In this document: piece by piece, positions 1,105-48,913 of the stretch | How positions within the stretch are numbered: the first letter of the stretch is position 1 | How the letters are laid out: each line of letters starts with the position of its first letter | Assembly: GCA_045605805.1 (NCBI GenBank) | Contig: JAZUQR010000027.1 | Location: forward strand, 96,001-160,000 | Direction: 5' to 3' | DNA from: Alphaproteobacteria bacterium | Lineage (GTDB): Bacteria; Pseudomonadota; Alphaproteobacteria; CAAHEQ01; UBA3637 | Length of the DNA stretch: 64,000 bases | The notes under the pieces: generated by a model | Databases searched by the model: none | What the model was told of the DNA's origin: nothing | Seen by the model: only the letters and a program-made list of their open reading frames with translations | Program-made: the position numbers and the translations under genes

Positions 1105-1532
1105 GCATCCCGCTGGGCAACTGCCAAAGCATCCACCCGTTCATTATACACATTACCCGCATGGCCCTTTACCCAATGCCATGTAATTTCGTGGGCATCC
1201 AACAAATCGGCCAAAATCTGCCATAAATCCACATTCAAAACGGGCTTTTTATCGGCCTTTCGCCACCCTTTTTCCTGCCATCCGGCAAGCCACTTGGTTG
1301 CCCCTTCCAACACATATTTGCTGTCTGTATATAAGTGAACAACACATTTTTGCTTCAAGGCTTTAAGGCCTTCAATCACGGCCGTCAGCTCCATGCGATT
1401 ATTGGTTGTCACAGCCTCACCACCGGATAATTCTTTTTCTTTATCTCCATAAACCAAAACGCATGCCCATCCCCCAGCCCCTGGGTTTCCGGAACATGCG
1501 CCATCGGTATATAAAGTCACTTCCTTAATCAT
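1095..1532 (-). CDS. rnhA: Ribonuclease HI
   Basis: [31 protein letters not shown] motifs. Confidence 0.97.
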
Positions 1533-1980
1533 CTAAATCGTATTGAATGATTAAATCATAAAGTTCTTTTTCATCGGAAGCCTTACGCAAAGCCGACACA
1601 GCCTCCTCGTTTCGTAAAAGTCGGGATAATCTGGCCAAAGCCTTTAAGTGATCAGCACCAGCTTCTTCTGGCACAAGCAACACAAAAGCCAAATCAACAG
1701 GTTTATTATCCACCGAATCAAATTCAACCGGTTCAGTTGTTGCAAACCCGCAAAAGATTTTTTTCAGCTTTGGCAAGCGAGTATGGGGCAAAGCCACCCC
1801 AAACCCAATGCCGGTTGTCCCCAAACGTTCCCGTTCAATCAAAGCATCCAAAACAACTGTTTCATCCAAACCAACCTTTTCACAAGCCAACGCAGCCAAT
1901 TGTGTCAACAACTGTTTTTTTGTCTTGGCCTTCAAATGAAACAACACGGATTCAGGTGCCAAAATATCAGAGATTTTCAT
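1525..1980 (-). CDS. ptsN: PTS IIA-Ntr nitrogen regulatory protein
   Basis: [29 protein letters not shown]; follows hpf. Confidence 0.95.
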
Positions 1981-1989
1981 AAAAACTCC

Positions 1990-2538
1990 TTATTTATTTT
2001 TTGGATCAACCCAACCAATGTTTCCATCGGCACGGCGGTAAATCATATTCAAGCCACCATGAGCTGTATTACGGAACAACAAAGCGTTTTGGCCAGATAA
2101 ATCCATACGCATCACAGCGGTTGCCACAGTACATAAAGGCAATTCTGTTTGCATTTCGGCAACAATCACCGGAGCATCGGCCACTTCTTCTTTGTCTTCT
2201 TCGGAATCAATCACAGACATATCCACCATTTCAACAGTGCTGTATTTATGATTGACAAGTTTGTTTTTATACTTATTCAATTGACGATGCATCTTACCCA
2301 ATGCTTGATCAATACAAGCATAAGCATCACCGGCTTCACCTTCTGCAAAAATCATAGCCCCACGCACAGGATGTACCACAACTTCGGCTTTTAACATATC
2401 ACCAGAACGAGACACTTTCACCGTTGCATCCAAAGCATTTGGAAAATACTTTTGAGCAATATCTGTCAATTTTTCTGTTGTATAAGTTGTCCAGCTTTCG
2501 CCCAAATCAATTTGATGTCCACTTATATTTACTTGCAT
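1990..2538 (-). CDS. hpf: Ribosome hibernation promoting factor (long HPF)
   Basis: MQVNISGHQIDLG N-terminus; C-terminal YRRADGNIGWVDP. Confidence 0.93.
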   Translation of the reverse strand: MQVNISGHQIDLGESWTTYTTEKLTDIAQKYFPNALDATVKVSRSGDMLKAEVVVHPVRGAMIFAEGEAGDAYACIDQALGKMHRQLNKYKNKLVNHKYSTVEMVDMSVIDSEEDKEEVADAPVIVAEMQTELPLCTVATAVMRMDLSGQNALLFRNTAHGGLNMIYRRADGNIGWVDPKNK

Positions 2539-8016: not shown

Positions 8017-8166
8017 ATGAAATACTATCAAAAAAGACGCCACCTTATCAGCAAAATGATTGCGGGAATCATCCTATTCTTCATCCTCTTTTTTGCCTTG
8101 TGTGATTGTACCCCGAAAGCAACCACGACACAAACCACCATCACCTTTGAAAGAAATGGGTCATGA
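8017..8166 (+). CDS. Small single-TM protein upstream of xerD
   Basis: AAGGAG RBS, ATG at 8017; basic N-terminus plus hydrophobic helix; stop overlaps the xerD start (ATGA). Confidence 0.6.
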   Translation: MKYYQKRRHLISKMIAGIILFFILFFALCDCTPKATTTQTTITFERNGS

Positions 8167-9068
8167 TACCCAAAGAAATTGATGTTTTTTTACAAATGCA
8201 AACAGCCGAATGTGGGGCATCACCCAACACAATTTCAGCATACAAACATGATTTGGAATCGCTTCATGCATTTTTACAAACACACCATAATTCCTTAACA
8301 AGCGCCACAAGTCAAGATCTTAAAGAATATATTGATGATTTAAGTCAACACCACTATTCGCCCAAAACACAAGCCCGTCGCCTGTCCAGTATGCGAGAGT
8401 TTTATAAGTTTCTGTTTTCCGAAAAAACCATCAAATCCAATCCCACCGACTATCTGCACAGCCCCAAAACACAAAAACCATTACCCAAATACCTCAGCGA
8501 AGAAGATATTTTTACACTAATTGCCAATGGGGATAAAATCAACCACCGTCTGTCCACATTATTGGAAGTTTTATACGCATCCGGTATGCGAGTCAGTGAA
8601 TTGGTCGGTCTGCCCATGTCGGCCGTTTCACAAGAAAATAAGCGTCTGTATATTACGGGGAAAGGACAAAAAGAACGCATTGTTCCCTTAAACGAAAAAG
8701 CCTGTGAAGCATTGGAAAAATGGATCTTAAAACGAGAACTTCTGTTTCCCCGAGCACAAAAAAATAAATGGCTGTTTCCAGCGGCATCAAAATCGGGCCA
8801 TTTAACACGAGGTGTTTTCTTCAAAGAATTAAAAAAATTGGCTGTATTGTGTGATATTGATCCAACAAAAGTATCACCCCATGTATTTCGTCACTCATTT
8901 GCCTCCCATTTAATTGCCCATGATGCCGATTTAAGGTCTGTGCAAAAACTTTTGGGCCACGCTGACATCGCCACCACAGAAATTTATACGCATATTTTAC
9001 CAAATAGATTAAAAAAGGTCATTGAAAAATCTCATCCTTTGTCGTATAATAACCAAAAGGATGAATAA
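8163..9068 (+). CDS. xerD: Tyrosine recombinase XerD
   Basis: LYASGMRVSEL, GKGQKER, SPHVFRHSFASHL, LLGHADIATTEIY; next to aroK. Confidence 0.92.
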   Translation: MIPKEIDVFLQMQTAECGASPNTISAYKHDLESLHAFLQTHHNSLTSATSQDLKEYIDDLSQHHYSPKTQARRLSSMREFYKFLFSEKTIKSNPTDYLHSPKTQKPLPKYLSEEDIFTLIANGDKINHRLSTLLEVLYASGMRVSELVGLPMSAVSQENKRLYITGKGQKERIVPLNEKACEALEKWILKRELLFPRAQKNKWLFPAASKSGHLTRGVFFKELKKLAVLCDIDPTKVSPHVFRHSFASHLIAHDADLRSVQKLLGHADIATTEIYTHILPNRLKKVIEKSHPLSYNNQKDE

Positions 9069-12000
9069 ATGAAGATTATAGACAAATACATTTTTCGGCA
9101 AACATTGGTTGGCTATCTGACAATTTTAATCAGTTTAACCGTCTTGATATGGTTGACACAATCCCTGCGCATGGTGGATATGATTGTCACCAAAGGGGTT
9201 TCTGTGGGTATTTTTTTGGAAATGACCCTTTTGGTGCTGCCAAACTTTTTACAAATTTTATCCCCCTTAGCCTTGTTTGGGGTAGCCTTGTTTGTGTTTA
9301 TCCGCATGCAATCGGACAAAGAACTGATTGTCTTAAAGGCTGTTGGCATGAACGCCAAACAATTGATAAAACCCTTGTTTATGTTAGGTGGTTTTTTGGT
9401 TTTCTTTGGCTATTTGCTCACCTTATGGGTGATTCCCGCCTCATATGCCCAACTGCGCCAAATGAAATGGAAAATACAAAACAATCTGTCTCACCTTTTG
9501 TTGCAAGAAGGGCAATTCAGCTCGTTCAAAAACGGCATGACATTATACATTCGGGAGCGAGAAGATGCCGGCAAAGTCAAAGGCATTCTGGCACATGAAA
9601 TCAAAAAAGATAAAAAGTCTGTGCTTATTGCCGAAGAAGGCTCAATGATTCAAACCCCCGAAGGTATCAGTTTAACATTCAATAACGGCACCCGCCAAGA
9701 GTTTAATACAAAAACGAAAGAGTTTTCTATCTTAAAATTTGATAAGCATACCATGCTGTTTGAACATTCGGCAAACAAATCCAGCCGAAAAATAGACCCC
9801 CGTGAAATGCCCTTAAAACAACTTATCCAAGCCCAACCAAATCAAGTAAAAGATGGCCCAACCTATCGCAAATATAAGGTAGAAGCCTTCAAACGCCTAA
9901 CACAACCGCTGTACAATTTATTGTTTTTATGGTTGGCTGCCTTTGGTGTTTTAAGTGGTCATTATAACAGACGGGGTCAATCCCGCCAAATCAATGCTGT
10001 TGTCATTGCAGCTGTTTTAATTCAATCTTTATCATTGGCCTTTGAAAACATTGCCACACGCAACCTGTGGGGCATAAGTTTAATGGGATTCAACTTACTT
10101 ATGCCATTGGTAATTTTGTATTTTGTCTTATTCAAAGAACGCAAAATCGGTTGGATACATTTAATGTTGCTGCTCTCTTTAACAGGAATTGGGACAAACG
10201 CCTATGCCGGTCCGAAATTGGACTTACAAAATCATGATGCCAAGGCCCCTATTGATTTTGAAGCAGACAATATGGACTACAACATCAAAACAAACATTTT
10301 AACCGCATCAGGGAATGTGGTTTTAACACAAAATCAAATGAATGTGCAAACACCAAAAATTATATACAACCAAGATACAGACGAGGTAAAAATCCCGCAA
10401 AAAACAAAAATTACCTTGCCAGACGGCACAAAATCAACCGTTCAAAATATGATGCTATACCCCAAAAAATCGGAAGCAACAGCCAACACCATCACCAGCA
10501 TTTTAACAGACGATTCCCGCATCACAGCCGAACAAATGATAAGCACCCAGAAGGGCGATATTATTTTGTTGAAAAACGCCACATACACGCCTTGCGATAC
10601 ATGTGAAGCCAAAGCCCCCCTGTGGCAAATTGAAGCCAAAGAAGTGAAACAAGATTTCACAGACCATACCCTATCTTATAAACATATGTTTTTGGATATA
10701 AAAGATATCCCTGTGTTATACTTTCCTTACTTTCAAATGCCGGATGCAACCATCAAACGCAAATCAGGTTTTTTGAACCCCAGTATCCGCCATACAAGCG
10801 AAATGGGCCTGTCATTAGAAACACCTTTATTTGTGGATATAGCCGAAAATCAAAATCTGCTCATCACACCGGTGATTTCTGCCAAACACTTACCATTGGG
10901 GATTGTAAATTATAACGGCTTATTCACCAAAGGTATTCTGAATGTACAATTCAGCGGCACGCAAGATAAAGATAACGAAAACGAAGGTCACCTGAAAGCC
11001 AACTTTGAATATGATATGACACAAAACCTCCGTTTAACAGGGCAATACTTCCGCACGCTCAGCGACACCTATTTCCGCCGATATGATATTGAAGGCATCA
11101 ATGATTCAGATTCTTTTTTGCGTTCTTATTTAACCGCTGAATACTTTGGCACGAGATTTTATACAAAAGCAAAAACATGGCATTTTCAAAGTCTGTTAAA
11201 TGAAGTGAACAGCCGTTCGTTGCCTGTCATCATTCCAACTGTGGATATGCAGTACCACACCAAACCACTGTTTAATACCAATCTGTATGCCTTTACCAAC
11301 ATCAATACCGCCTTATATAACACCCGCAACCATTTCAAATCTAACCGTCTGTCTTTAACGCAAGGATTTACCCTTCCCTATACCACTTCGTTTGGGTTGG
11401 TCACCGAAACAAAAGCAAGCCTGCGTTTTGATGGCTATGTGATAGACAGTGGCAAAGACAATCTGGTTTCCAAACATCCGGAAGACACCTATAACAAAGG
11501 ACGCTTTACCCCTATATTCAGCACAAAAATCAGTTATCCCTTGTTCACTACAACAAAGCAAACAACTCAAGTTTTGGAACCCATTATTATGATGGTGATG
11601 TCCCCCAATACAAAGAACAGCCAAAACATTCCTAATTTAGACAGTACCGTCTTTAACTTTGACGATACCAACCTGTTTTCCGAAAACCGTTTTGCCGGCT
11701 ATGACCGCATAGAAACAGGCACACGCATCAACTATGGTTTGCAATGGACAGCCTATCAAAATGATGCCAAAGACAGATCTTTATCCATCTTATTTGGCCA
11801 ATCCTATCGCTTGAACGAATCGGAAGAATTAAAAGATGTGATGGGATACAGCCACCACCTGTCCGACTATGTGGGAAACATTCAATTAAACTATCAACAC
11901 CTGAATCTATACTATCGTTTCCGCTTAAATCGTGAAAACCTGTCCAAACGCAAAAATGACATTGGTTTTTCTGTGGGTGGCAACCCCTTGCGAGTTGGAC

Positions 12001-12302
12001 TAAATTATCTGTATCAAGGGGCATATACATTAGACAACAAACACTATGACGAAGAAAATGAAATTCGTTTTTGGGCGCAATCACAATTTCATAAAAACTG
12101 GCAAACAAGCGGTTATTACAGATACAACTTAAAAAAAGACGGAGGCCCTATTGAATATGGTGTTCAAATACGCTATGATAATGAATGTAGTGCCATCATA
12201 TTTAATTTGGAAAAATCCTATACCAAAGACAGAAACTATAAAGGAAGCACCTCGTTTATGATAAAAGTACTTTTGAAAACCTTAGGAGGAATCGGTCAGT
12301 GA
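9069..12302 (+). CDS. Fused LptF (aa ~1-355) and LptD (aa ~381-1077) LPS transport protein
   Basis: N-part has WLTQSLR, SDKELIVLKAVG and six TMs (LptF); C-part has IDFEAD, NATYTPC, PLWQIEA, KRKSGFL, LFSENRFAGYDRIE, YDNEC (LptD); no stop codon between them. Confidence 0.9.
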   Translation: MKIIDKYIFRQTLVGYLTILISLTVLIWLTQSLRMVDMIVTKGVSVGIFLEMTLLVLPNFLQILSPLALFGVALFVFIRMQSDKELIVLKAVGMNAKQLIKPLFMLGGFLVFFGYLLTLWVIPASYAQLRQMKWKIQNNLSHLLLQEGQFSSFKNGMTLYIREREDAGKVKGILAHEIKKDKKSVLIAEEGSMIQTPEGISLTFNNGTRQEFNTKTKEFSILKFDKHTMLFEHSANKSSRKIDPREMPLKQLIQAQPNQVKDGPTYRKYKVEAFKRLTQPLYNLLFLWLAAFGVLSGHYNRRGQSRQINAVVIAAVLIQSLSLAFENIATRNLWGISLMGFNLLMPLVILYFVLFKERKIGWIHLMLLLSLTGIGTNAYAGPKLDLQNHDAKAPIDFEADNMDYNIKTNILTASGNVVLTQNQMNVQTPKIIYNQDTDEVKIPQKTKITLPDGTKSTVQNMMLYPKKSEATANTITSILTDDSRITAEQMISTQKGDIILLKNATYTPCDTCEAKAPLWQIEAKEVKQDFTDHTLSYKHMFLDIKDIPVLYFPYFQMPDATIKRKSGFLNPSIRHTSEMGLSLETPLFVDIAENQNLLITPVISAKHLPLGIVNYNGLFTKGILNVQFSGTQDKDNENEGHLKANFEYDMTQNLRLTGQYFRTLSDTYFRRYDIEGINDSDSFLRSYLTAEYFGTRFYTKAKTWHFQSLLNEVNSRSLPVIIPTVDMQYHTKPLFNTNLYAFTNINTALYNTRNHFKSNRLSLTQGFTLPYTTSFGLVTETKASLRFDGYVIDSGKDNLVSKHPEDTYNKGRFTPIFSTKISYPLFTTTKQTTQVLEPIIMMVMSPNTKNSQNIPNLDSTVFNFDDTNLFSENRFAGYDRIETGTRINYGLQWTAYQNDAKDRSLSILFGQSYRLNESEELKDVMGYSHHLSDYVGNIQLNYQHLNLYYRFRLNRENLSKRKNDIGFSVGGNPLRVGLNYLYQGAYTLDNKHYDEENEIRFWAQSQFHKNWQTSGYYRYNLKKDGGPIEYGVQIRYDNECSAIIFNLEKSYTKDRNYKGSTSFMIKVLLKTLGGIGQ

Positions 12303-13189
12303 AATACCTGCTTTTAATTTTAACCTTATTATGTACCTATACCACCCAAGCGATGGAGCTGAAAGCCACCGTCAACGATGAACCGATTTCTGATTTAGAC
12401 ATCACAGAATGGGCAAACCTGTTAAAGTTCCAACAACCACAAAAATATGAATCCTACACCAACGAAGACCTTCAAACAGAAGCCCTCAACAATCTGATAG
12501 AAACAATTGTCAAAAAGCAAACGGCCCAAAATGAAGGGATAAAAGTAAGCAATAAAGAAATTCAAAATGCCAAAAATCATTTGGAACAACAAAATGGCCT
12601 GCCAATCGGAGAATTGAATAATTTATTACAAACCCAAGGCATCAATGCCGCCACACTTCAAAAGCAAATAGAAGCCGATTTATTGTGGTTGCAATACCTG
12701 CGTCATAAAACCGATGATTTATCCATTTCTGATTTGGCAGTGGATAAACGCTATCAAGCCATGAAGCAGGATTTGCAAGACCAAGGCATAACCGGCAACA
12801 GCATTACACTGTGGGAAATTGCCCAAGGAATGTTTGATGAAAATGTGGATGTCACAACAACTTTGGAATCAAAAGATTGTGAAGCCTTTTTGGAACATAT
12901 TAAAATTGGCACACATCCAGAATCTGCCCAATCCGGTTGGACAGACCCAAATCAAATTGCACCAGAACTATACAACCTGTTAAAAGATGTGGCCGTAGGC
13001 GAAACAATCGGCCCGTTGCGGGCTCCAAATGGCGTGTTGGTTTTAATGAAATGCAATGTACAAAACCAAAAAATTATGCCGGAAAAAGAACAATTAAAAA
13101 TGCAAATGGAAATGGAACAAATGGATGTGGTTTCTCGCCGTTTAATGGCCGAAGCTGTACGCCGTTCTGTCATAGAAAAAAAGGACTAA
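12299..13189 (+). CDS. surA: SurA-like periplasmic chaperone
   Basis: Signal peptide, ATVNDEPISDLD SurA N-domain, reduced PPIase remnant; directly after lptD. Confidence 0.75.
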   Translation: MKYLLLILTLLCTYTTQAMELKATVNDEPISDLDITEWANLLKFQQPQKYESYTNEDLQTEALNNLIETIVKKQTAQNEGIKVSNKEIQNAKNHLEQQNGLPIGELNNLLQTQGINAATLQKQIEADLLWLQYLRHKTDDLSISDLAVDKRYQAMKQDLQDQGITGNSITLWEIAQGMFDENVDVTTTLESKDCEAFLEHIKIGTHPESAQSGWTDPNQIAPELYNLLKDVAVGETIGPLRAPNGVLVLMKCNVQNQKIMPEKEQLKMQMEMEQMDVVSRRLMAEAVRRSVIEKKD

Positions 13190-23636: not shown

Positions 23637-24980
23637 TCATACTTTTCTTGCCAAGAAATACCTATCTGTATCGGTGTTTTTAATATCTCGCCCACAATAC
23701 CGTGCGCCTTCTTGGCATTTGCCACAAATAAAACAAGGAGGAGCCAACACCTTTAACAAAGTATCTGATTTTGGCAAACAGGCTAATACCTCTCTTAAAG
23801 CCACCGCCACATGATAGATTTCTTCTTGGGCACACCAACAAGAACGCTTGCCTTGCTCATGAATCAAAGCATTCAAATCAGCCATTTTTTGATAGCGCAC
23901 CATCCCCCCATAAGGCGCAACAGCCTGAATCAAACCGGCCGGCACTTGGCCTTGAAAATCCAACCATTCCTGCATATACGCAAGCGCAATATCCGCCATA
24001 CCGGCCTCTTGCAATAAAGGCGGCAAATAAAATGAATTGACAAACCAAGGGGTTGACCGTTTCACCGAACGATGCCGTTGATCTTGCCCATAGGTGGCAC
24101 AAGAAACTTGAACCTCTGTTTTGACAAAATGAACCGAGTTATTCATTGCCTGAGGATTAAAATACAAAGTATCCACACTGTCTTTACCGGCATCAGGATA
24201 AACTGATTCATCCAAATCGGCCTCTAACAAATACACATCCGGCTTCTCCTCCACAACAGCCGTTCCTTCTTTAATCGGCAAATACCAATTTTGTTCCTGA
24301 CGCATCAAAGGATTAAAAAAATCGGCCAATTCGGGATATTCTGCCACAACAGCATCCCGCATCATATCCACAATCAAGCGCATTTCACTGGTCCATGCGC
24401 TGCGCCACAAAGCCGTTAAAGCCGACAAATTCAAGGTCATATCCAATGCCGTTGGCACAAGTTGAGAAATAAACATCCGTAGTTGTTCTTGAGCCAACTT
24501 GGGGGCATTTATTTCTATATATTTATCATTCGCAAAAGGCCGTTCTGTCCGAATAGCCTTTTCGGCAAGCGGTATAATTTTTGGCAACCAGTCTTGATAA
24601 ATCTGAAAACCTTTTTGAATCCAAGGCATTACCTTGTCAATATCCTCGTCACTGTAAAAAGGGGTTAAAAAGGAAGTCATTTTTTCAAAATCAGGTTCTT
24701 CATACATTTTTGAAAAACGGCCCGACCGTTGATCAGAATTATAATAAGGGGCAGTCAAATGAAGCCCAAAGACCACGGCCGACACAGGAATGTCTTTCAA
24801 AGAAAAAGTAAAATGCGTATGTTGTAAAGTGGTATGATGGCCCGAATCAAACAAACGCCCCTTCACATCAATCGGCTTGTCAATCAAAACTGGGTCCAAA
24901 GTATAACACACCCGTGCAGCATGAGACGCCAAATCCAATGGTTTTTTGTCGGACTTTGCCAAAAGTTTAATCTGCATCAT
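23637..24980 (-). CDS. thyX: FAD-dependent thymidylate synthase ThyX, two-domain form
   Basis: GHHTTLQHTHFTF and SDQRSGRF in domain 1; QDQRHRS in domain 2; C-terminal PPC..CQEG..YCG. Confidence 0.8.
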   Translation of the reverse strand: MMQIKLLAKSDKKPLDLASHAARVCYTLDPVLIDKPIDVKGRLFDSGHHTTLQHTHFTFSLKDIPVSAVVFGLHLTAPYYNSDQRSGRFSKMYEEPDFEKMTSFLTPFYSDEDIDKVMPWIQKGFQIYQDWLPKIIPLAEKAIRTERPFANDKYIEINAPKLAQEQLRMFISQLVPTALDMTLNLSALTALWRSAWTSEMRLIVDMMRDAVVAEYPELADFFNPLMRQEQNWYLPIKEGTAVVEEKPDVYLLEADLDESVYPDAGKDSVDTLYFNPQAMNNSVHFVKTEVQVSCATYGQDQRHRSVKRSTPWFVNSFYLPPLLQEAGMADIALAYMQEWLDFQGQVPAGLIQAVAPYGGMVRYQKMADLNALIHEQGKRSCWCAQEEIYHVAVALREVLACLPKSDTLLKVLAPPCFICGKCQEGARYCGRDIKNTDTDRYFLARKV

Positions 24981-40309: not shown

Positions 40310-40729
40310 ATGATACAACGCACATTTTCAATTATAAAACCTAACGCCACCGCCCGCCATTTGGAAAATGAAATCAACGAAAAAATCCAACAGGCAGGCT
40401 TAAAAATTATCGCATCCAAGCGCATTGAACACCCCACAAAAGAACAGTTTGAACAATTCTATGCCGAACACAAAGGCAAACCGTTTTATGAAGGCTTGTT
40501 GGATTTTATGACCTCTGGCCCCATCGTGGTTCAGGTATTGGAAGCCGAAGAGGCCATCCAACGCTATCGCACTTTAATGGGAAATAAAGATCCGGCCGAA
40601 GCAGACGAAGGCACATTACGCAAACTGTATGCCGAAAGCAAAACAAAAAATTCGGTTCATGGGTCTGACTCACCCGAAAGTGCTGCCCGAGAAATTGCCT
40701 TGTGGTTCACCGAAGACGAATTAAAATAA
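40310..40729 (+). CDS. ndk: Nucleoside diphosphate kinase
   Basis: [30 protein letters not shown]; GGAG RBS; TTGACA-N18-TATGAT upstream. Confidence 0.97.
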
Positions 40730-40749
40730 CCGTTCAGCGAGGGGCAACA

Positions 40750-43038
40750 GTGACACACAGAAGCAAATCAGCCCAATCCGGTCGCACCATGTTGGAAATC
40801 ATCTCTGTCATGGCTATGATCGGCGTGCTGACAATCGGTTCTATTGCCTTTTATCGTTTTGTGATGAACTATCAACAAAGCAAAGCCCTTTATAACGATT
40901 TCAAAGTGCGTTCCGCCTTAAATATGGAAGGCAAAGGGCGTATTTTTTCCACCGATATGGAAAACAAATCAACCTATGACAAAGAAATGACGGTTGCACA
41001 AAATTTCCCCCAGTATGGTTTTTTCAAGATAACCGCCCAAGGTGTTGAACAGGCGATATGTAAAAGGCTGATAAAAGAAGAATGGCCCGAACACAGCCGG
41101 ATTTATTTGGATGACAAACCATTTGGCTCGGCCATTACCGAATGTCCCCAAAAAGATGTCGCCTTTTCCGTTGTCTATCGTTCCACCCGCACCCGCCAAG
41201 AATTGCCCCCACTTTGTACACCCGATAGCACCTGTGAAGGCTGTACCTCATGTCAAAATGGCGAATGCCGTGCGGGTTGCTCATCGGGTAATGTGTGTTA
41301 TGATAACGCCTGCGTGGTTGGTTCATGCACATCCCAAGAAGACGGCACAGAATTGTGTTGCCCTGCAACACCGAAATACTGTCCGTTGAATGCACAAATA
41401 AGTGGCAACCAAACCTCCTGTGCATGCGAATGCCCCTCTCACCGCACACAAAGTGGCGGGATATGCGGTGATTGTCATTTTGACAGCGAGTTTGAACCAT
41501 TTATTGTACCACAATTCACACAAAACACCAAAGCAGGCTATGGCACCTTACAAACCGATTACTATTCAATCAACAGCGCAGATGAAGATGCATGGCGGGC
41601 TTTTGATGGGGATAAAACCAAACACTTTCTGTGGGTTGGCAACTATAGTTATGTTATATGGCATTTGCCACAACCAGTTCGGGTAAAATCCACAACAATT
41701 TGGCAAAATTTAATTGATCCGGCAAAAGATAGATTTCCAAGAATAATCACCTTGTATGGTTCTAATGATAAAAACAATTGGACAACCTTGGGAACAATAA
41801 CAAATCAAACAATTCCTCCTGAATATGTAAAACTTCAAACCGATGCCTCCCAACAGTGGACCAGCTTGAAATGGGAGTTTAATGACAATTTTGGCGGATG
41901 GTATGAACAAGTCGGCGAAATTGAAATGGAAGCCGAAATACTGGCTTCAAGTTCAAACTATACTTTTGATACAAACACATTCCAATGCACAAAAGCACGC
42001 ACCGAAAAAGAAGGGGAACCATGTCACCCATCTAACGCAGGCCGAACTGCTTGCAATCAATCCGAGGGCATATTGTATAAATGTACAGGTGGAACATTAC
42101 AAGTACTCTACACATGCAATGCATCAAATCCCACAAATATTGAAAGTTTACAACAACCGAATATCTGCCCAGAAGTAGGAAATGAGTGTTTTATAAATGA
42201 GACACAAGGGATTTGTTTGGGCGAAGAAGGGAACTTACAATGCTGTGCCGGAGCAATCAATTTAGAAACAAACACTGTTTCTGAAACATGTTGCAACGAA
42301 GCTGTTTATAACACAGCATTCTCAGGGGATTATTATGTCTACAGCTATCTTGAAGACAATATGGATGTCCCATCTGGAAACACAACTTTTTCAACATACA
42401 TCAACGGCACCCCACTTGACTTTGGCTTATGTTGTTTTAATGCCATTGATTTGGTCACAGGCACAACCGATGAACGATGTGGTCAAGCAACAGCCGAAAA
42501 AATGAATCAATGGACAAGCAGCTATCTGATATACGGTATGTCTAATGGTGAATTTTGCTATGGTCCAACCAATTTAAGCTACAAAGAACCAACCAGCACG
42601 CAACAATGTTGTGATTTTGTCAAAGAAGATTTCCAATATATGCCTGATCCGCCATCAGTGACTTGGGTTGAAACAGAATGGGGATACAATTTCTGTTGTC
42701 AAGGCCCATTTGATGCTTCATGTCCAGACTGTGGCATGACTGAAGACTGCTGCAAAAGCGCAGGCGGAACAATGGGAAGTGATTGGTGGAGCTGTTGTAA
42801 AGGCGCAGAAGACCTTGCTAATCCCGAATATGATTCATATACCTGTTGTTCGGATGTTGGGGGAGAAATGAGAACAGTAGAAGATTACTTTAACTACGGA
42901 TACGAATGGGATATGTATGATGTTTGTTTTAATCCAACAACCAATTGCCCCATTTCTCAATTTGCCTGTGAACGCTTCAGCGACAGGTATAATTGTCAAT
43001 GGAACAATGAAAATCAATCTTGCGAACCAATCTTATAA
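40750..43038 (+). CDS. Large Cys-rich type IV pilin-like surface protein with a discoidin (F5/8 type C)-like domain
   Basis: GAGGGG RBS and GTG start; class III signal SG|RTMLE followed by a hydrophobic helix; AWRAFDGD..W..LYGSND..NWTTL..VGEIE; many Cys-Cys repeats. Confidence 0.75.
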   Translation: MTHRSKSAQSGRTMLEIISVMAMIGVLTIGSIAFYRFVMNYQQSKALYNDFKVRSALNMEGKGRIFSTDMENKSTYDKEMTVAQNFPQYGFFKITAQGVEQAICKRLIKEEWPEHSRIYLDDKPFGSAITECPQKDVAFSVVYRSTRTRQELPPLCTPDSTCEGCTSCQNGECRAGCSSGNVCYDNACVVGSCTSQEDGTELCCPATPKYCPLNAQISGNQTSCACECPSHRTQSGGICGDCHFDSEFEPFIVPQFTQNTKAGYGTLQTDYYSINSADEDAWRAFDGDKTKHFLWVGNYSYVIWHLPQPVRVKSTTIWQNLIDPAKDRFPRIITLYGSNDKNNWTTLGTITNQTIPPEYVKLQTDASQQWTSLKWEFNDNFGGWYEQVGEIEMEAEILASSSNYTFDTNTFQCTKARTEKEGEPCHPSNAGRTACNQSEGILYKCTGGTLQVLYTCNASNPTNIESLQQPNICPEVGNECFINETQGICLGEEGNLQCCAGAINLETNTVSETCCNEAVYNTAFSGDYYVYSYLEDNMDVPSGNTTFSTYINGTPLDFGLCCFNAIDLVTGTTDERCGQATAEKMNQWTSSYLIYGMSNGEFCYGPTNLSYKEPTSTQQCCDFVKEDFQYMPDPPSVTWVETEWGYNFCCQGPFDASCPDCGMTEDCCKSAGGTMGSDWWSCCKGAEDLANPEYDSYTCCSDVGGEMRTVEDYFNYGYEWDMYDVCFNPTTNCPISQFACERFSDRYNCQWNNENQSCEPIL

Positions 43039-44379: not shown

Positions 44380-46127
44380 AGTTCTTCAAAAAAAACCCAA
44401 CCTCTTTTTATGCACCGTGCCAAGAAATCCCAACACCAAAACGGGAAAAGGAACGCTATCTGGATGCGGCCACACAAAAAAGCCTGCGCACCGCCAAGAA
44501 CCGCATTTTGATTATCGGTTTGGCTTTTTTATCCTTGCTGTTTATCATTTGGGGCCGGCTGTTTTATCTGACGGTTTTAAGCTACGACAAAACCCCCATC
44601 AAAACATCCCAATGGGATACAGACGAAAAACTGCCCCGCTATAACATTGTGGACAGAAACGGCGTGGTATTGGCCACCACACTCACCTCGTGGGATATAT
44701 CCGTCAATCCTAAAAAAGTGGAAAATCCCGAAGAAGTCGCCAAAAAAATACACGAAAAATTGCCCGATTTACAGGAAAAAGAATTGCTTCAAAAACTCAC
44801 TTCAAAAAGCAATTTCAAATACATCAAACGAGGCGCAACGCCCAAAGAATTGGAAGCTGTCAATTGGCTTGGCTATCACTTTTTAACCTATGAAGCCGTC
44901 AATACCCGAGCCTACCCACAAGGCCCTTTATTTTCGCATATACTGGGAGGTGTCAACATTGATAATGTGGGCATATCAGGCATAGAAAAAGCCTTTGATA
45001 ACGAATTAAAAAAAGCGCAACTGCAACTCTCACTAGATACTTCTGTACAAGAAGCCGTACGAAGCAACCTTTTGAAAAGTATAGAAAAATTCAAAGCAGA
45101 AGGGGCTTTTGGCTTGGTAATGGACATTCACACAGGGGAATTATTGGCAAGCGTTTCTCTGCCTGATTATGATCCGGAAAAACCAGTTGGTAAAGACCCT
45201 TCTGTACGCTTTAATATGCCCACATTGGGGGTTTATGAATTCGGTTCTGTCTTAAAATTATTCAACACAGCCATGGCATTGGAAAACAAAATCATCAAAG
45301 AAACAGACATCATAGATGCCTCTGCGCCATTAAAAATCGGGCGCAAACAAATTGAAGATTTTCGGGGGCAAAACCGCCCACTCAGCACCACCGAAGTCTT
45401 GATGCATTCGTCTAACATTGCCTCGGCCAAAATTGCTTTGCAGGCAGGCTATGAAAAACAACGGGAGTTTTTACAACGCTTTCACTTATTTGATAAATTA
45501 TCCATACCTTTACCCGAACGAGGTACGCCCATTTACAACACAAAAGAAAAATGGGCGGATATAGAAACGGCCAATGTGGCTTTTGGCTATGGTCTGGCCA
45601 CAACCGCCCTACATCTGGCAGCCGGAGTATCAGCTTTAACAAACGGTGGATTTTATAATGTACCGACTTTCCTAAAAGAAGGAAACAAAAACAAACCAAC
45701 AACAAAAGTCTTAGATACCGACATATCCCAAAAACTGCGTCATATGATGTGGGCCGTTTTGAATTGGGATATTTGGACAAAGAATGTGGCCAAACACTAT
45801 GCCGTTGGGGGCAAAACAGGCACAGCAAACATCAAAGAACAAGGCGGTTATAATACCGATAAAATTCGGGCCTCCTTTGTGGGCGTTTTTCCAATTGATA
45901 ACCCGCAATATCTTGTCCAAGTCACCTTACTCAATCCACAAAGATTAAAAGAAACCTTGATGTTGAATAATGCCGGATGGAACGCCCGCCCCACCGGATT
46001 AAATATCATCAGCGAAATTGCCCCTTATCTGAATGTGGCTCCTGTCACCGACTATCAACCACCGGAATATGTCCAACAGGCCATTGAAACTTCTTTAATT
46101 AAAAACAAAAGGAAAAAAGCACAATGA
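44376..46127 (+). CDS. ftsI: Septal transpeptidase PBP3
   Basis: IVDRNG, SVLK, SSN, KTGT. Confidence 0.95.
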   Translation: MKFFKKNPTSFYAPCQEIPTPKREKERYLDAATQKSLRTAKNRILIIGLAFLSLLFIIWGRLFYLTVLSYDKTPIKTSQWDTDEKLPRYNIVDRNGVVLATTLTSWDISVNPKKVENPEEVAKKIHEKLPDLQEKELLQKLTSKSNFKYIKRGATPKELEAVNWLGYHFLTYEAVNTRAYPQGPLFSHILGGVNIDNVGISGIEKAFDNELKKAQLQLSLDTSVQEAVRSNLLKSIEKFKAEGAFGLVMDIHTGELLASVSLPDYDPEKPVGKDPSVRFNMPTLGVYEFGSVLKLFNTAMALENKIIKETDIIDASAPLKIGRKQIEDFRGQNRPLSTTEVLMHSSNIASAKIALQAGYEKQREFLQRFHLFDKLSIPLPERGTPIYNTKEKWADIETANVAFGYGLATTALHLAAGVSALTNGGFYNVPTFLKEGNKNKPTTKVLDTDISQKLRHMMWAVLNWDIWTKNVAKHYAVGGKTGTANIKEQGGYNTDKIRASFVGVFPIDNPQYLVQVTLLNPQRLKETLMLNNAGWNARPTGLNIISEIAPYLNVAPVTDYQPPEYVQQAIETSLIKNKRKKAQ

Positions 46128-48913
46128 ACTTAAAAGAATTAGGATTTCAACACGATTTACAAATTACAGGCATCACCGAAAAAGCATCCGAAGTAAAAAA
46201 GGGTGATCTCTTTTGCGCCTTAAAAGGCACAACGGCAAACGGGGCTGATTTTATTCCTGAGGCCATCAAAAACGGAGCTGTAGCTGTTTTAACAAACCAA
46301 CCTGTCACAGCCGATATTCCTGTGATTCAGGTTGAAAATCCTCGTGCTGTTTTAACACAAATTGCCAATAAAATCTATCCTTCCGATAAACTGGAAAAAG
46401 TGGCCGTCACCGGCACAAATGGCAAAACATCCACCGTTTATTATGTGGCCGAAATTATGAACGCCCTTGGCACTTTAAGTGCCAGCATGGGAACGGTTGG
46501 TATTCAAGCCCCCACCTTTCAATTAAAGGGGAATATGACCACACCGGACGCCGTTTCCTTAAATAAAACTTTGCATCTTCTGCAAGAAAAAAACATTCAA
46601 GTCGTGGCGATGGAAGCATCCAGCCATGGGCTTCATCAAGGGCGTTTGTCGGGCAATCTTATCAAAGCAGCCGCCTTCACCAATTTAACCCGAGATCATT
46701 TGGATTATCACAAAACCATGGAAAATTATCTGCAAGCAAAAACTTTGCTGTTCACACAAAATATGGTTCCAAACGGTACAGCGGTTTTGAATGCAGATAT
46801 CCCCGAATATGAATTCTTAAAACAAATCTGTACAAACCAAAACCTGACAATGATCAGCTATGGCAAACAAGGGGAAACATTAAAACTGATAAGCCAAAAA
46901 CCCACCCCAAACGGGCAAGAATTGGTTGTCAAAGTACAAAATAAAGAACACTTGATTCCCATACAGATTTATGGTGATTTTCAAGCCTATAACATCTTGG
47001 CTGCTGTTGGCTTGTGTATGGGACTTGGCAAAACATTTGAACAAATCCTGCCAATACTATCCACATTAAAAGCCCCCAATGGTCGCTTGGAAAATGTGGG
47101 AGAAACACCCAATGGGGCCCGGATTTTTGTGGATTATGCCCATACACCGGACGCATTGGAACGAGTCCTTTGCTCTTTGCGTCCACACACAAAAAACAAG
47201 CTGTGCTGTCTGTTCGGTTGTGGAGGGAATCGGGATACAGGCAAACGCCCGCAAATGGGTGAAATTGCCAACCGCTTGGCCGATAAGGTCTATATCACCG
47301 ATGATAATCCCCGCAACGAAGAACCGGCCCTTATCCGTCAGGCTATTCAACAAGCCTGTCCCAAAGGAAAAAGTTTTAACAACCGCCAACAAGCCATTTG
47401 CCAAGCCATTTCAGAATTAGAAAAAGGCGATATTTTGGTGTTGGCCGGAAAAGGGCACGAATCGGGGCAAACCATCCAAAACATAACCTATCCGTTCAAT
47501 GATAAAATTGAAGCACAACTCTGCCTTAAATCATTAAAAGAGCCACCGTTGTGGACAAGTTCAGAATTACAAATGGCCTTGAATACAGCTGTGGATAAAA
47601 ATATCTGGGCAAGTGGGGTGAAGTTTGACTCACGCACCATAGAACTGGGGGATATATTTGTCGCCTTAAAAACCGAACAAAATGATGGCCATAACTATGT
47701 CACGCAAGCGTTGGAAAAAGGAGCCAGTGCATGCATTGTCAATCACCCGATAGAAACAGTTTTACAAAGCAAACAAATCGTTGTGCCAAACACCTTACAG
47801 GCCTTGGAATCCTTGGCCCGTTTTGCCCGTATGCGCACCATGGCACAGGTCATTGGCATCACAGGAAGCTGTGGCAAAACAAGCACAAAAGAAATGATTG
47901 CACAATGTCTTGCTAAACAAGGCAAAACACACGCCACACAAAAAAACTTTAATAATGACTTGGGCGTACCATACACATTGGCCAATATGCCAGCCGACAC
48001 ACAATATGCAGTGATTGAAATGGGTATCAGCCACCCCAACGAAATGGCTCAACTATCCGATTTTGTGCGTCCCAATGTCACCTTGATAACAAACATTGCC
48101 CCAGCTCATCAAGAGTTTTTTGAAAACACAAAAGCGATTGCCAGTGAAAAAATACACATTGTTGATTTTCAAGATAAAACAGGCTGTATTTTGCTAAATG
48201 CAGACGATGAACTGTGTCAATTTTTGGCCGATACAGCCACCCAAAAAGGTGTACGAAAAATTGTGCGTTTTGGACATTCAGACAAAGCCGATACACAACT
48301 GATAACCGCTGTCCCACAAAACGATAGCACAAAAGTGCACTTAAAAATGCAAGGCGAAAAAATAGATTTGACCTTACAATTTATCGGCCAACACTTTGCC
48401 TTAAACTGTGCGGCCGCCCTGTCTGCCATAGAAGCTGTTGGCGCAAGTGTGGATCAAGCAATTTATGACATACAAACCCTGTCTCCCGTTCAAGGCAGAG
48501 GGGCTGTTTTCACCTGTACAATTGAAGGGAAAACCGTTCATTTAATTGATGATGCCTATAATGCCAATCCGCTATCCATGCAATCCAGTTTACGGGCATT
48601 TGGCGCACGAGAAGGGCAAAAAATTGCCGTTTTAGGGGATATGTTGGAATTGGGCGAAAAATCCCTTAAAATGCATCTTGACATCTTAAACGAGTTAGCG
48701 CAAAATAACATCAGCAAATTATATGCTGTTGGTCCCATCATGAGCCAAGCTTTTGATTTGGCCCCTCCCGACATACAAGGTGCTAAAACCCTATCGGCAG
48801 AATCATTGGCCGATATTTTAAGGCACAACCTGCAAGACGGAGATTGGGTTTTATTCAAGGCCTCTCATGGAATGAACCTTTCAGCATTGATTCAAAAATT
48901 AAAAGGAGAATAA
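46124..48913 (+). CDS. Fused MurE-MurF ligase
   Basis: MurE half: TGTNGKTS, MEASSHG, DYAHTPD, DNPR. MurF half: TGSCGKTSTK, NNDLGVP, DDAYNANP, GDMLELG. Single frame. Confidence 0.95.
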   Translation: MNLKELGFQHDLQITGITEKASEVKKGDLFCALKGTTANGADFIPEAIKNGAVAVLTNQPVTADIPVIQVENPRAVLTQIANKIYPSDKLEKVAVTGTNGKTSTVYYVAEIMNALGTLSASMGTVGIQAPTFQLKGNMTTPDAVSLNKTLHLLQEKNIQVVAMEASSHGLHQGRLSGNLIKAAAFTNLTRDHLDYHKTMENYLQAKTLLFTQNMVPNGTAVLNADIPEYEFLKQICTNQNLTMISYGKQGETLKLISQKPTPNGQELVVKVQNKEHLIPIQIYGDFQAYNILAAVGLCMGLGKTFEQILPILSTLKAPNGRLENVGETPNGARIFVDYAHTPDALERVLCSLRPHTKNKLCCLFGCGGNRDTGKRPQMGEIANRLADKVYITDDNPRNEEPALIRQAIQQACPKGKSFNNRQQAICQAISELEKGDILVLAGKGHESGQTIQNITYPFNDKIEAQLCLKSLKEPPLWTSSELQMALNTAVDKNIWASGVKFDSRTIELGDIFVALKTEQNDGHNYVTQALEKGASACIVNHPIETVLQSKQIVVPNTLQALESLARFARMRTMAQVIGITGSCGKTSTKEMIAQCLAKQGKTHATQKNFNNDLGVPYTLANMPADTQYAVIEMGISHPNEMAQLSDFVRPNVTLITNIAPAHQEFFENTKAIASEKIHIVDFQDKTGCILLNADDELCQFLADTATQKGVRKIVRFGHSDKADTQLITAVPQNDSTKVHLKMQGEKIDLTLQFIGQHFALNCAAALSAIEAVGASVDQAIYDIQTLSPVQGRGAVFTCTIEGKTVHLIDDAYNANPLSMQSSLRAFGAREGQKIAVLGDMLELGEKSLKMHLDILNELAQNNISKLYAVGPIMSQAFDLAPPDIQGAKTLSAESLADILRHNLQDGDWVLFKASHGMNLSALIQKLKGE

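Follow-up and report, generated by a model that had tools for sequence, protein, structure and literature searches.

The permease subunit LptF and the translocon LptD are the two ends of the lipopolysaccharide (LPS) bridge and reside in different membranes. A single gene encoding both, lptF::lptD, is present in a 64,000-nucleotide stretch of the genome of an Alphaproteobacteria bacterium (assembly GCA_045605805.1, contig JAZUQR010000027.1, positions 96,001 to 160,000 of the forward strand), referred to here as the window (Table 1). A preliminary description of the locus had interpreted the gene as encoding a polyprotein with an internal signal peptide; its account of the fusion, of the topology and of the signal peptide character of the linker stands, but the internal start at Met366 that it offered as an alternative does not.

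One reading frame contains complete LptF and LptD

The 1077-codon frame comprises complete LptF and LptD sequences joined by a linker of 25 residues, as indicated by its translation, Pfam, NCBIfam and an AlphaFold2 model, confirming the initial identification of a complete six-helix permease and a full translocon in one open reading frame (ORF). The permease half matches Pfam LptF_LptG (PF03739) over residues 6-351, covering profile positions 1-349 of 353 (E 1.3e-65, 222.2 bits, cut-off 27.9). It was assigned to LptF and not to LptG because the NCBIfam LptF equivalog TIGR04407 passes its cut-off (233.2 bits, cut-off 230) and the LptG model TIGR04408 falls short (87.4 bits, cut-off 240). The AlphaFold2 model, built from 34 family members (mean predicted local distance difference test score (pLDDT) 79.2, predicted template modelling score 0.54), has helices at residues 2-42, 46-82, 96-138, 263-295, 305-331 and 334-354 with strands at 150-232 between them, so that the six helices of LptF and the beta-jellyroll between helices 3 and 4 are both present in its secondary structure. 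A sequence search of the PDB (25 distinct sequences) matched LptF and LptD chains only, for example 6s8g_F and 6mhu_F in the permease half and 8h1r_A, 5iv9_A and 4n4r_A in the translocon half.

The translocon half contains Pfam LptD_N (PF03968; residues 398-529, 32.7 bits, cut-off 20.4) and LptD (PF04453; residues 648-1011, E 4e-46, 158.5 bits, cut-off 22.4). Its jellyroll opens at an invariant P394-x-x-F397-E-A-D400 motif and ends near the invariant C509 and C512, and the beta strands of the model continue to residue 1069. Two NCBIfam LptD equivalogs remain below cut-off (NF002997, 155.7 bits vs 683; NF003358, 84 bits vs 944), a shortfall that we read as divergence and not as another family because these cut-offs are very high. 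The LptD signal peptide is not N-terminal in the fused protein but internal, with 355 LptF residues ahead of it.

Conservation of the fusion

Two separate genes could be joined in error, during sequencing or assembly, or by a mutation that has recently inactivated them, and a one-nucleotide error in the ATGA overlap by which lptF and lptD meet in several unfused relatives would yield a frame of this kind. A homologue database search, of which the best 120 of 165 hits were listed, gave PF03739 and PF04453 together on 119 of the 120 listed proteins, at identities from 98% to 40% and mostly 1065-1096 residues long; these are the single-chain relatives for which the preliminary description had proposed to search. 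A scan of species-representative genomes, with frames read from stop to stop, yielded 75 loci (given by number below); in 53 of them the frame is single and complete, at ~1072-1102 codons. L006, L044, L050 and L064 are also in frame across the junction, making 57 junction-spanning loci besides the window, all of them in frame. L044, L050 and L064 end at contig edges, in frame through the junction, and the remaining fragments stop short of it; the frame of L006 is intact at the junction and breaks only towards the end of the lptD part. Where records name an organism, the fused loci are mostly from metagenome-assembled genomes (MAGs) of uncultured Alphaproteobacteria, many from ruminant rumen or gut. 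The clade may correspond to the GTDB order RF32, for which only reviews and surveys of microbiomes were found in the literature.

The same continuous frame is thus found in 57 loci from separate assemblies, at identities from 98% down to ~37-40%, and both halves keep many invariant residues together with full-length domain matches. Joining by error or by inactivation is refuted for the window and the main clade, and its overall probability is practically nil, even though two singleton fusions described below (P0265 and P0273) are not cleared of error and L006 has its frame break in the lptD part. We conclude that lptF::lptD is a genuine, conserved gene fusion. As a separate observation, two contigs of one MAG named 'uncultured Lactobacillales bacterium' (L054 and L064) carry halves of an alphaproteobacterial-type lptF::lptD at their ends; the name is probably a binning or labelling error.

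The linker as a probable internal signal peptide

The linker coordinates first given were exact (K356 at 10134, M366 at 10164, K383 ending at 10217), and the topology then proposed for it is borne out. LptF ends in the cytoplasm, as established from LptB2FG structures, so a hydrophobic segment following it would run from inside to outside. In the AlphaFold2 model the linker begins with a short 14-residue helix (residues 360-373) and is then unstructured, with pLDDT <50 at residues 369-389. We compared it across 57 junctions, namely 56 loci and the window; L002, which was missed by the motif regular expression and left out, is likewise fused, with a linker ending VKA/A (the slash marks the predicted cut). 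At least one Lys or Arg stands just ahead of the hydrophobic run in all 57 linkers, the charged loop being 4-20 residues long across the family and the uncharged run 10-18 (median 14). According to a permissive rule-based signal peptide detector, whose site picker favoured Ala, position -1 is occupied by Ala in 50 linkers and by Ser in 7 and position -3 by A, S, V, T or G, and the predicted site lies 10-17 residues ahead of the jellyroll motif. In MAFFT alignment columns, read without any site picking, 28 of 34 rows have Ala at -1 and 28 of 34 have A, S, T or V at -3, whereas the columns flanking -1 are highly variable and close to random. The linker is barely alignable across the family, yet its layout of basic stretch, hydrophobic run and small residues is constant. 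The -1 Ala columns, the position of the signal peptide in unfused LptD and the short helix of the model support the signal peptide character that had been suspected.

In sister lineages of both fused groups (the main clade and a second group described below) the place of the linker is taken by the N-terminal signal peptide of a stand-alone LptD, indicating that the linker descends from LptD's original N-terminal signal peptide. Measured between the helix-6 proline and the jellyroll proline, this region has 20 different lengths (45-66) in the 57 genes, all of them in frame.

Cleavage or an uncut tether

A polyprotein cut by signal peptidase I, as first suggested, remains the best reading given the N-terminal signal peptide of unfused LptD at the same position, and we consider it probable. 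In the ancestor, lptF and lptD already lay side by side with their translation coupled, in most cases by an ATGA stop/start overlap, and loss of the lptF stop joined the LptF C-terminus to the LptD signal peptide. The ribosome would now make one 1077-residue chain, of which the six LptF helices would enter the inner membrane, with residue 355 remaining on the cytoplasmic side. Together, the KERK loop and the hydrophobic run would then serve as an internal inside-to-outside signal, with the ~700-residue LptD part threaded through Sec and signal peptidase I cutting after Ala-Tyr-Ala380. Mature LptD would be freed to the periplasm for SurA/BAM-assisted assembly in the outer membrane, and LptF would keep the signal peptide as a seventh helix with a new, periplasmic C-terminus. 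As an outcome, LptF and LptD would be synthesised in equimolar amounts and at the same place, a stoichiometry that may be of benefit.

Several points weigh against such a cut, which we infer from the linker. The rule of the detector also passes ~6 other sites per protein (mean 5.98), mostly the ends of LptF transmembrane helices, so its 57 passes in 57 linkers prove little by themselves, and as proof of a signal peptide the detector was set aside. In view of this weakness we rely on positional ancestry and on the unbiased alignment columns. The uncharged run reaches 18 residues in the window protein, which is long for a cleaved signal and near membrane-anchor length, and few polytopic proteins of bacteria are known to be cut by signal peptidase beyond their last helix.

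Left uncut, the linker would be a seventh transmembrane anchor within one chain extending from the inner membrane to the outer-membrane barrel, possibly shortening or replacing the LptC/LptA bridge. The continuous frame in all 57 junction-spanning loci and the window would suit such a tether, as would the uncharged runs of up to 18 residues and the inferential nature of the cut, and a Thermotoga fusion of LptF/G-, LptA- and LptD-like parts is described and drawn as an uncleaved envelope-spanning protein (PMC10160955). We nevertheless consider the tether unlikely. The -1 Ala is a conserved island in a variable linker for which an anchor would have no need, and the hydrophobic run, judged by its median and by the model helix of 14 residues each, is still of signal peptide and not of anchor length. 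The spacing of 10-17 residues between the site and the first strand is similar to that in unfused relatives (about 5-17), so no tether was added after the fusion. An uncut chain would also, judging from the dimensions of the periplasm and of LptD, pin the N-terminal edge of the jellyroll at the inner membrane with the barrel in the outer membrane, which counts further against it and leaves the cleaved polyprotein as the preferred reading.

The question of an internal start

LptD might also be made mainly from a start of its own within the linker, the read-through fusion being a minor or tolerated by-product. A coupled lptD start stood at this spot in the ancestor, the window has Met366, and an in-frame ATG occurs somewhere between 25 codons before and 5 codons after the start of the hydrophobic run in 43 of the 57 fused genes. 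Start-like codons in the linker region of the 57 genes occupy no conserved position, however; many of the ATGs fall within LptF helix 6, and the examined stretch of L033 is devoid of ATG, GTG and TTG codons. A Shine-Dalgarno core of 4 nucleotides or more is present at 31 of 41 of the fusion's own starts, at 30 of 52 starts of the downstream gene and at 32 of 50 gene starts of the window (~58-76% for real starts), compared with 392 of 4217 in-frame start-like codons inside genes (9.3%) and 14 of 241 start-like codons in the linker region (5.8%). Cores in the linker are therefore no commoner than background, and an ATG is combined with a core in only 4 of 57 genes. Met366, which the preliminary description had put forward as a possible start, is not conserved and has no core, and a signal peptide beginning there would have no basic n-region. 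Without read-through, moreover, there would be no selection to hold 20 linker lengths all in frame. Because no start codon is positionally fixed and ribosome-binding cores are not enriched, internal initiation is not a conserved feature; we regard it as quite improbable as the main source of LptD, although a single species could still use it.

Origin from an adjacent gene pair

The next relatives, at 26-34% identity, are unfused. L059, L065, L066, L067, L071 and the cultured Haematospirillum (L070 and L073) have a separate lptF directly before lptD with no lptG between them. The two genes share a 4-nucleotide ATGA overlap in L065, L066, L067, L070 and L073; in L059 the lptD ATG lies 2 nucleotides past the lptF stop, and in L071 stop and start codons follow each other directly, in frame, as TAA-ATG. 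In all seven pairs LptD carries a plain signal peptide, followed within a few residues by the P-V-D-F-S-A-D at the opening of the jellyroll. The basic C-terminal tail of LptF extends 33 residues past the helix-6 proline in L059 and 55 in L067, and is shorter in Haematospirillum. The order lptF-lptG-lptD, cited in the preliminary description as usual, was found in L068, L069 and L075. It was also observed that the Haematospirillum lptF frames (L070 9674-11137, L073 9365-11137) have at least ~110 open codons ahead of the LptF domain, whose first residue is 116 of 487.

A quick IQ-TREE maximum likelihood tree (LG+G4) of the mature LptD part was calculated for 65 rows, leaving out L002 (fused), L006 (frame break) and contig-end fragments. 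The 53 fused rows form one clade with a support of 100 in the Shimodaira-Hasegawa-like approximate likelihood ratio test (SH-aLRT), and the nearest outgroups are L059 and L065-L067. The outgroups L074 and L072 were labelled 'canonical'; by profiles, LptF is in neither and there is no LptG in L074.

The gene neighbourhood is likewise shared. The xerD-type gene upstream of the fusion recurs in L046, L038, L061, L059 and L066, and the fused loci (the window, L046, L038 and L061) have the same order as the unfused L059 and L066, namely aroK (opposite strand), an unknown gene, xerD, lptF(::)lptD, surA, in some cases rsmA, and then folD. In Haematospirillum the order is pepA, acyl-CoA dehydrogenase, lptF, lptD, surA, pdxA, rsmA. 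Because the fused genes are one clade, their sisters have an adjacent coupled pair and the gene order is shared, we conclude that the fusion in the main clade arose once, from an lptF/lptD pair that was already adjacent and coupled, and has been kept since. The ancestor already having lptF next to lptD, lptG was not removed by the fusion.

The SurA-like protein encoded downstream of the fusion in the window begins with an ordinary signal peptide ending TQA. It has 296 residues and SurA_N only, and L061 is N-only in the same way; L046, L038, L059, L066 and L070 have SurA_N plus rotamase (393-468 residues).

Independent fusions and their implications

When 1.84 billion representatives were searched exhaustively, 12,597 hits were obtained, and the best 150 of these include three main-clade members, the full-length fusions P0247 and P0265 and the fused fragment P0273 (Pfam-confirmed). 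In a tree of 82 rows none of the latter three joins the main clade, whose 55 rows again have an SH-aLRT of 100. P0247 is sister to stand-alone LptD with a support of 99; P0265 and P0273 are on long branches and their placement is unsure. P0247, P0391, P0392 and P0393 constitute a fused group of 1103-1134 residues at 43-100% mutual identity, nested among >100 stand-alone LptD clusters at 49-56% identity. Their linkers also consist of a basic stretch and a hydrophobic run, followed by AGA/K, ANA/Q, TQA/Q or AFA/E, and the residues past this motif align with the predicted mature start of the unfused sisters. As this group lies outside the main clade, among stand-alone LptD, we conclude from the tree that the lptF-lptD fusion has been made at least twice, apparently with the signal peptide kept each time.

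The fusion has therefore been invented at least twice, and at least 57 species-level genomes have retained it despite deep divergence. This shows that bacteria can produce an outer-membrane barrel and a polytopic inner-membrane protein from one translation product. Should the predicted cut take place, lptF::lptD would be a rare bacterial membrane polyprotein and a natural experiment on why equal amounts and co-located synthesis might aid assembly of the bridge. In source records the fused genes are currently named either LptD or LptF, and this single-name annotation hides the other half in gene-presence surveys.

Absence of lptG from its usual place

We looked for lptG with Pfam on the 65 ORFs of the window and with our own LptF and LptG profiles on all frames of >=100 residues in the 75 loci and the window. 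No second LptF/LptG-family gene was found by either means in the 64-kb window, in agreement with the absence of lptG noted at the outset, and none was found by the profiles within 10 kb of any fused or adjacent-gene locus; they recover LptG only in L068, L069, L072 and L075. lptG is missing from its place beside lptF in all 58 junction-spanning genes and in the 7 adjacent-gene relatives. A database search with an LptG alignment returned, among the best 120 of 4519 hits, only marine Rhodospirillaceae-type LptG and none from the fused clade or Haematospirillum. With regard to the other components of the system, Pfam found no LptA, LptC or LptE domains in the window, lptB was found neither in the window nor within 10 kb of fused loci, and the sole ABC ATPase in the window adjoins MlaE.

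LptF works as a heterodimer with LptG plus two LptB, and the absence of lptG from its usual place raises the question of whether these bacteria, including the cultured Haematospirillum, use an LptF-only permease, the LptF homodimer that the preliminary description had suggested for the case that lptG is absent genome-wide. Among the papers listed for LptF/LptG homodimers, no LptG-less system was found. One could go further and picture an uncut, seven-helix-anchored LptF-LptD conduit that crosses a locally narrowed envelope with little or no LptA and is driven by an LptG-free LptF homodimer, a combination that we hold to be very unlikely.

Two further ORFs of the window, one of 367 residues (1-1104, +), which runs off the window start, and one of 778 residues (40702-43038, +), have no Pfam family at E up to 1 beyond noise. 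The former is hydrophobic and was considered as a candidate LptG, and was rejected as not LptG-like by profiles. At 1525-2538 (-), hpf and ptsN (EIIA-2) occur together without preceding rpoN and lptB, which usually precede hpf/ptsN in Proteobacteria, and a radical-SAM gene adjoins them instead.

Features of the locus and other observations

Table 1. The lptF::lptD gene, its parts and its conserved neighbours, with positions in the window
Feature	Position	Strand	Basis
lptF::lptD, single ORF	9069..12302	+	ATG start, 1077 codons plus stop, translates stop-free
LptF module, residues 1-355: six transmembrane helices, periplasmic beta-jellyroll between helices 3 and 4	9069..10133	+	Pfam, TIGR04407, model, PDB matches
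Basic cytoplasmic loop KERK, residues 356-359, proposed n-region of internal signal peptide	10134..10145	+	sequence
Putative internal signal peptide core, residues 360-380: hydrophobic run IGWIHLMLLLSLTGIG, then TNAYA; seventh membrane segment	10146..10208	+	model, position, alignment columns
Predicted signal peptidase I cut, Ala380/Gly381 (AYA/GPK)	10206..10211	+	linker rule and alignment columns
Predicted mature LptD, residues 381-1077	10209..12299	+	Pfam LptD_N and LptD, PDB matches
LptD N-terminal beta-jellyroll, ~residues 394-530	10248..10658	+	Pfam, alignment, model
LptD beta-barrel, ~residues 534-1069; invariant C1040 near end	10668..12275	+	Pfam, alignment, model
xerD-type tyrosine recombinase gene, stop abuts fusion ATG; conserved upstream neighbour	8163..9068	+	Pfam, NCBIfam
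SurA-like chaperone gene, SurA_N only, overlaps fusion stop by 4 nucleotides; conserved downstream neighbour	12299..13189	+	ORF, Pfam

A second fusion of adjacent genes is present in the same genome, at 46124-48913 (+), where a frame of 929 residues contains two Mur_ligase_M and two Mur_ligase_C domains and thus encodes MurE together with MurF. A ThyX-like protein of 447 residues encoded at 23637-24980 (-) has a Thy1 domain at residues 10-216 only, its C-terminal half being without a family. Downstream of folD in L046 (15446-23127), six consecutive ORFs without a Pfam family are followed by two VirB8-domain genes; the stretch possibly belongs to an island for type IV secretion or conjugation.

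Comparison with known systems

The preliminary description knew of no comparable system. This holds for Proteobacteria, for which no report of an LptF-LptD fusion was found among the papers listed in literature searches, but not in general, as an Lpt fusion of Thermotoga is in print (PMC10160955). The Thermotoga maritima 'fusion pABC permease' G4FGC1 has LptF/G-, LptA- and LptD-like domains on one chain (PMC10160955). Compared here by its published description only and not by sequence, it resembles lptF::lptD in being a single chain, in combining LptF/G-like with LptA/LptD-like parts and in its proposed link between the inner membrane and the outer layer; it differs in that the organism is without LPS, the protein is drawn uncleaved and neither an internal signal peptide nor an LptD barrel is mentioned in the accessible text of the publication (PMC10160955). 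In a Bacteroides preprint, 'fused' refers to two-hybrid constructs only.

Relative to the canonical system (E. coli LptB2FGC-LptA-LptDE), both fused halves are clear homologues: the six helices and jellyroll of LptF and the jellyroll, barrel and conserved cysteines of LptD are the same in the fusion, and surA lies downstream as in the alphaproteobacterial order lptF-lptG-lptD-surA. The fusion differs in being one polypeptide, in its internal LptD signal peptide and in having lptG neither between the two genes nor near them, and in fused LptF, unlike canonical LptF, the chain would terminate in the periplasm after a seventh helix. The nearest precedent for the proposed mechanism is the Bradyrhizobium cytochrome b/c1 precursor (FbcH), reportedly a membrane polyprotein that is split at an internal signal sequence, which is said to combine, likewise in one cleaved chain, a polytopic inner-membrane protein, an internal signal peptide and a second exported protein; the proteins themselves are unrelated, and the second product is said to be anchored in the inner membrane and not placed in the outer membrane.

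The unfused pairs of L059, L065-L067, L071 and L070/L073 have, as the fusion does, no lptG between the two genes and a signal peptide at the same position, and L059 and L066 have xerD upstream and surA downstream as in the fused loci. They differ from it in that a stop codon still parts the genes and LptF retains its basic C-terminal tail.

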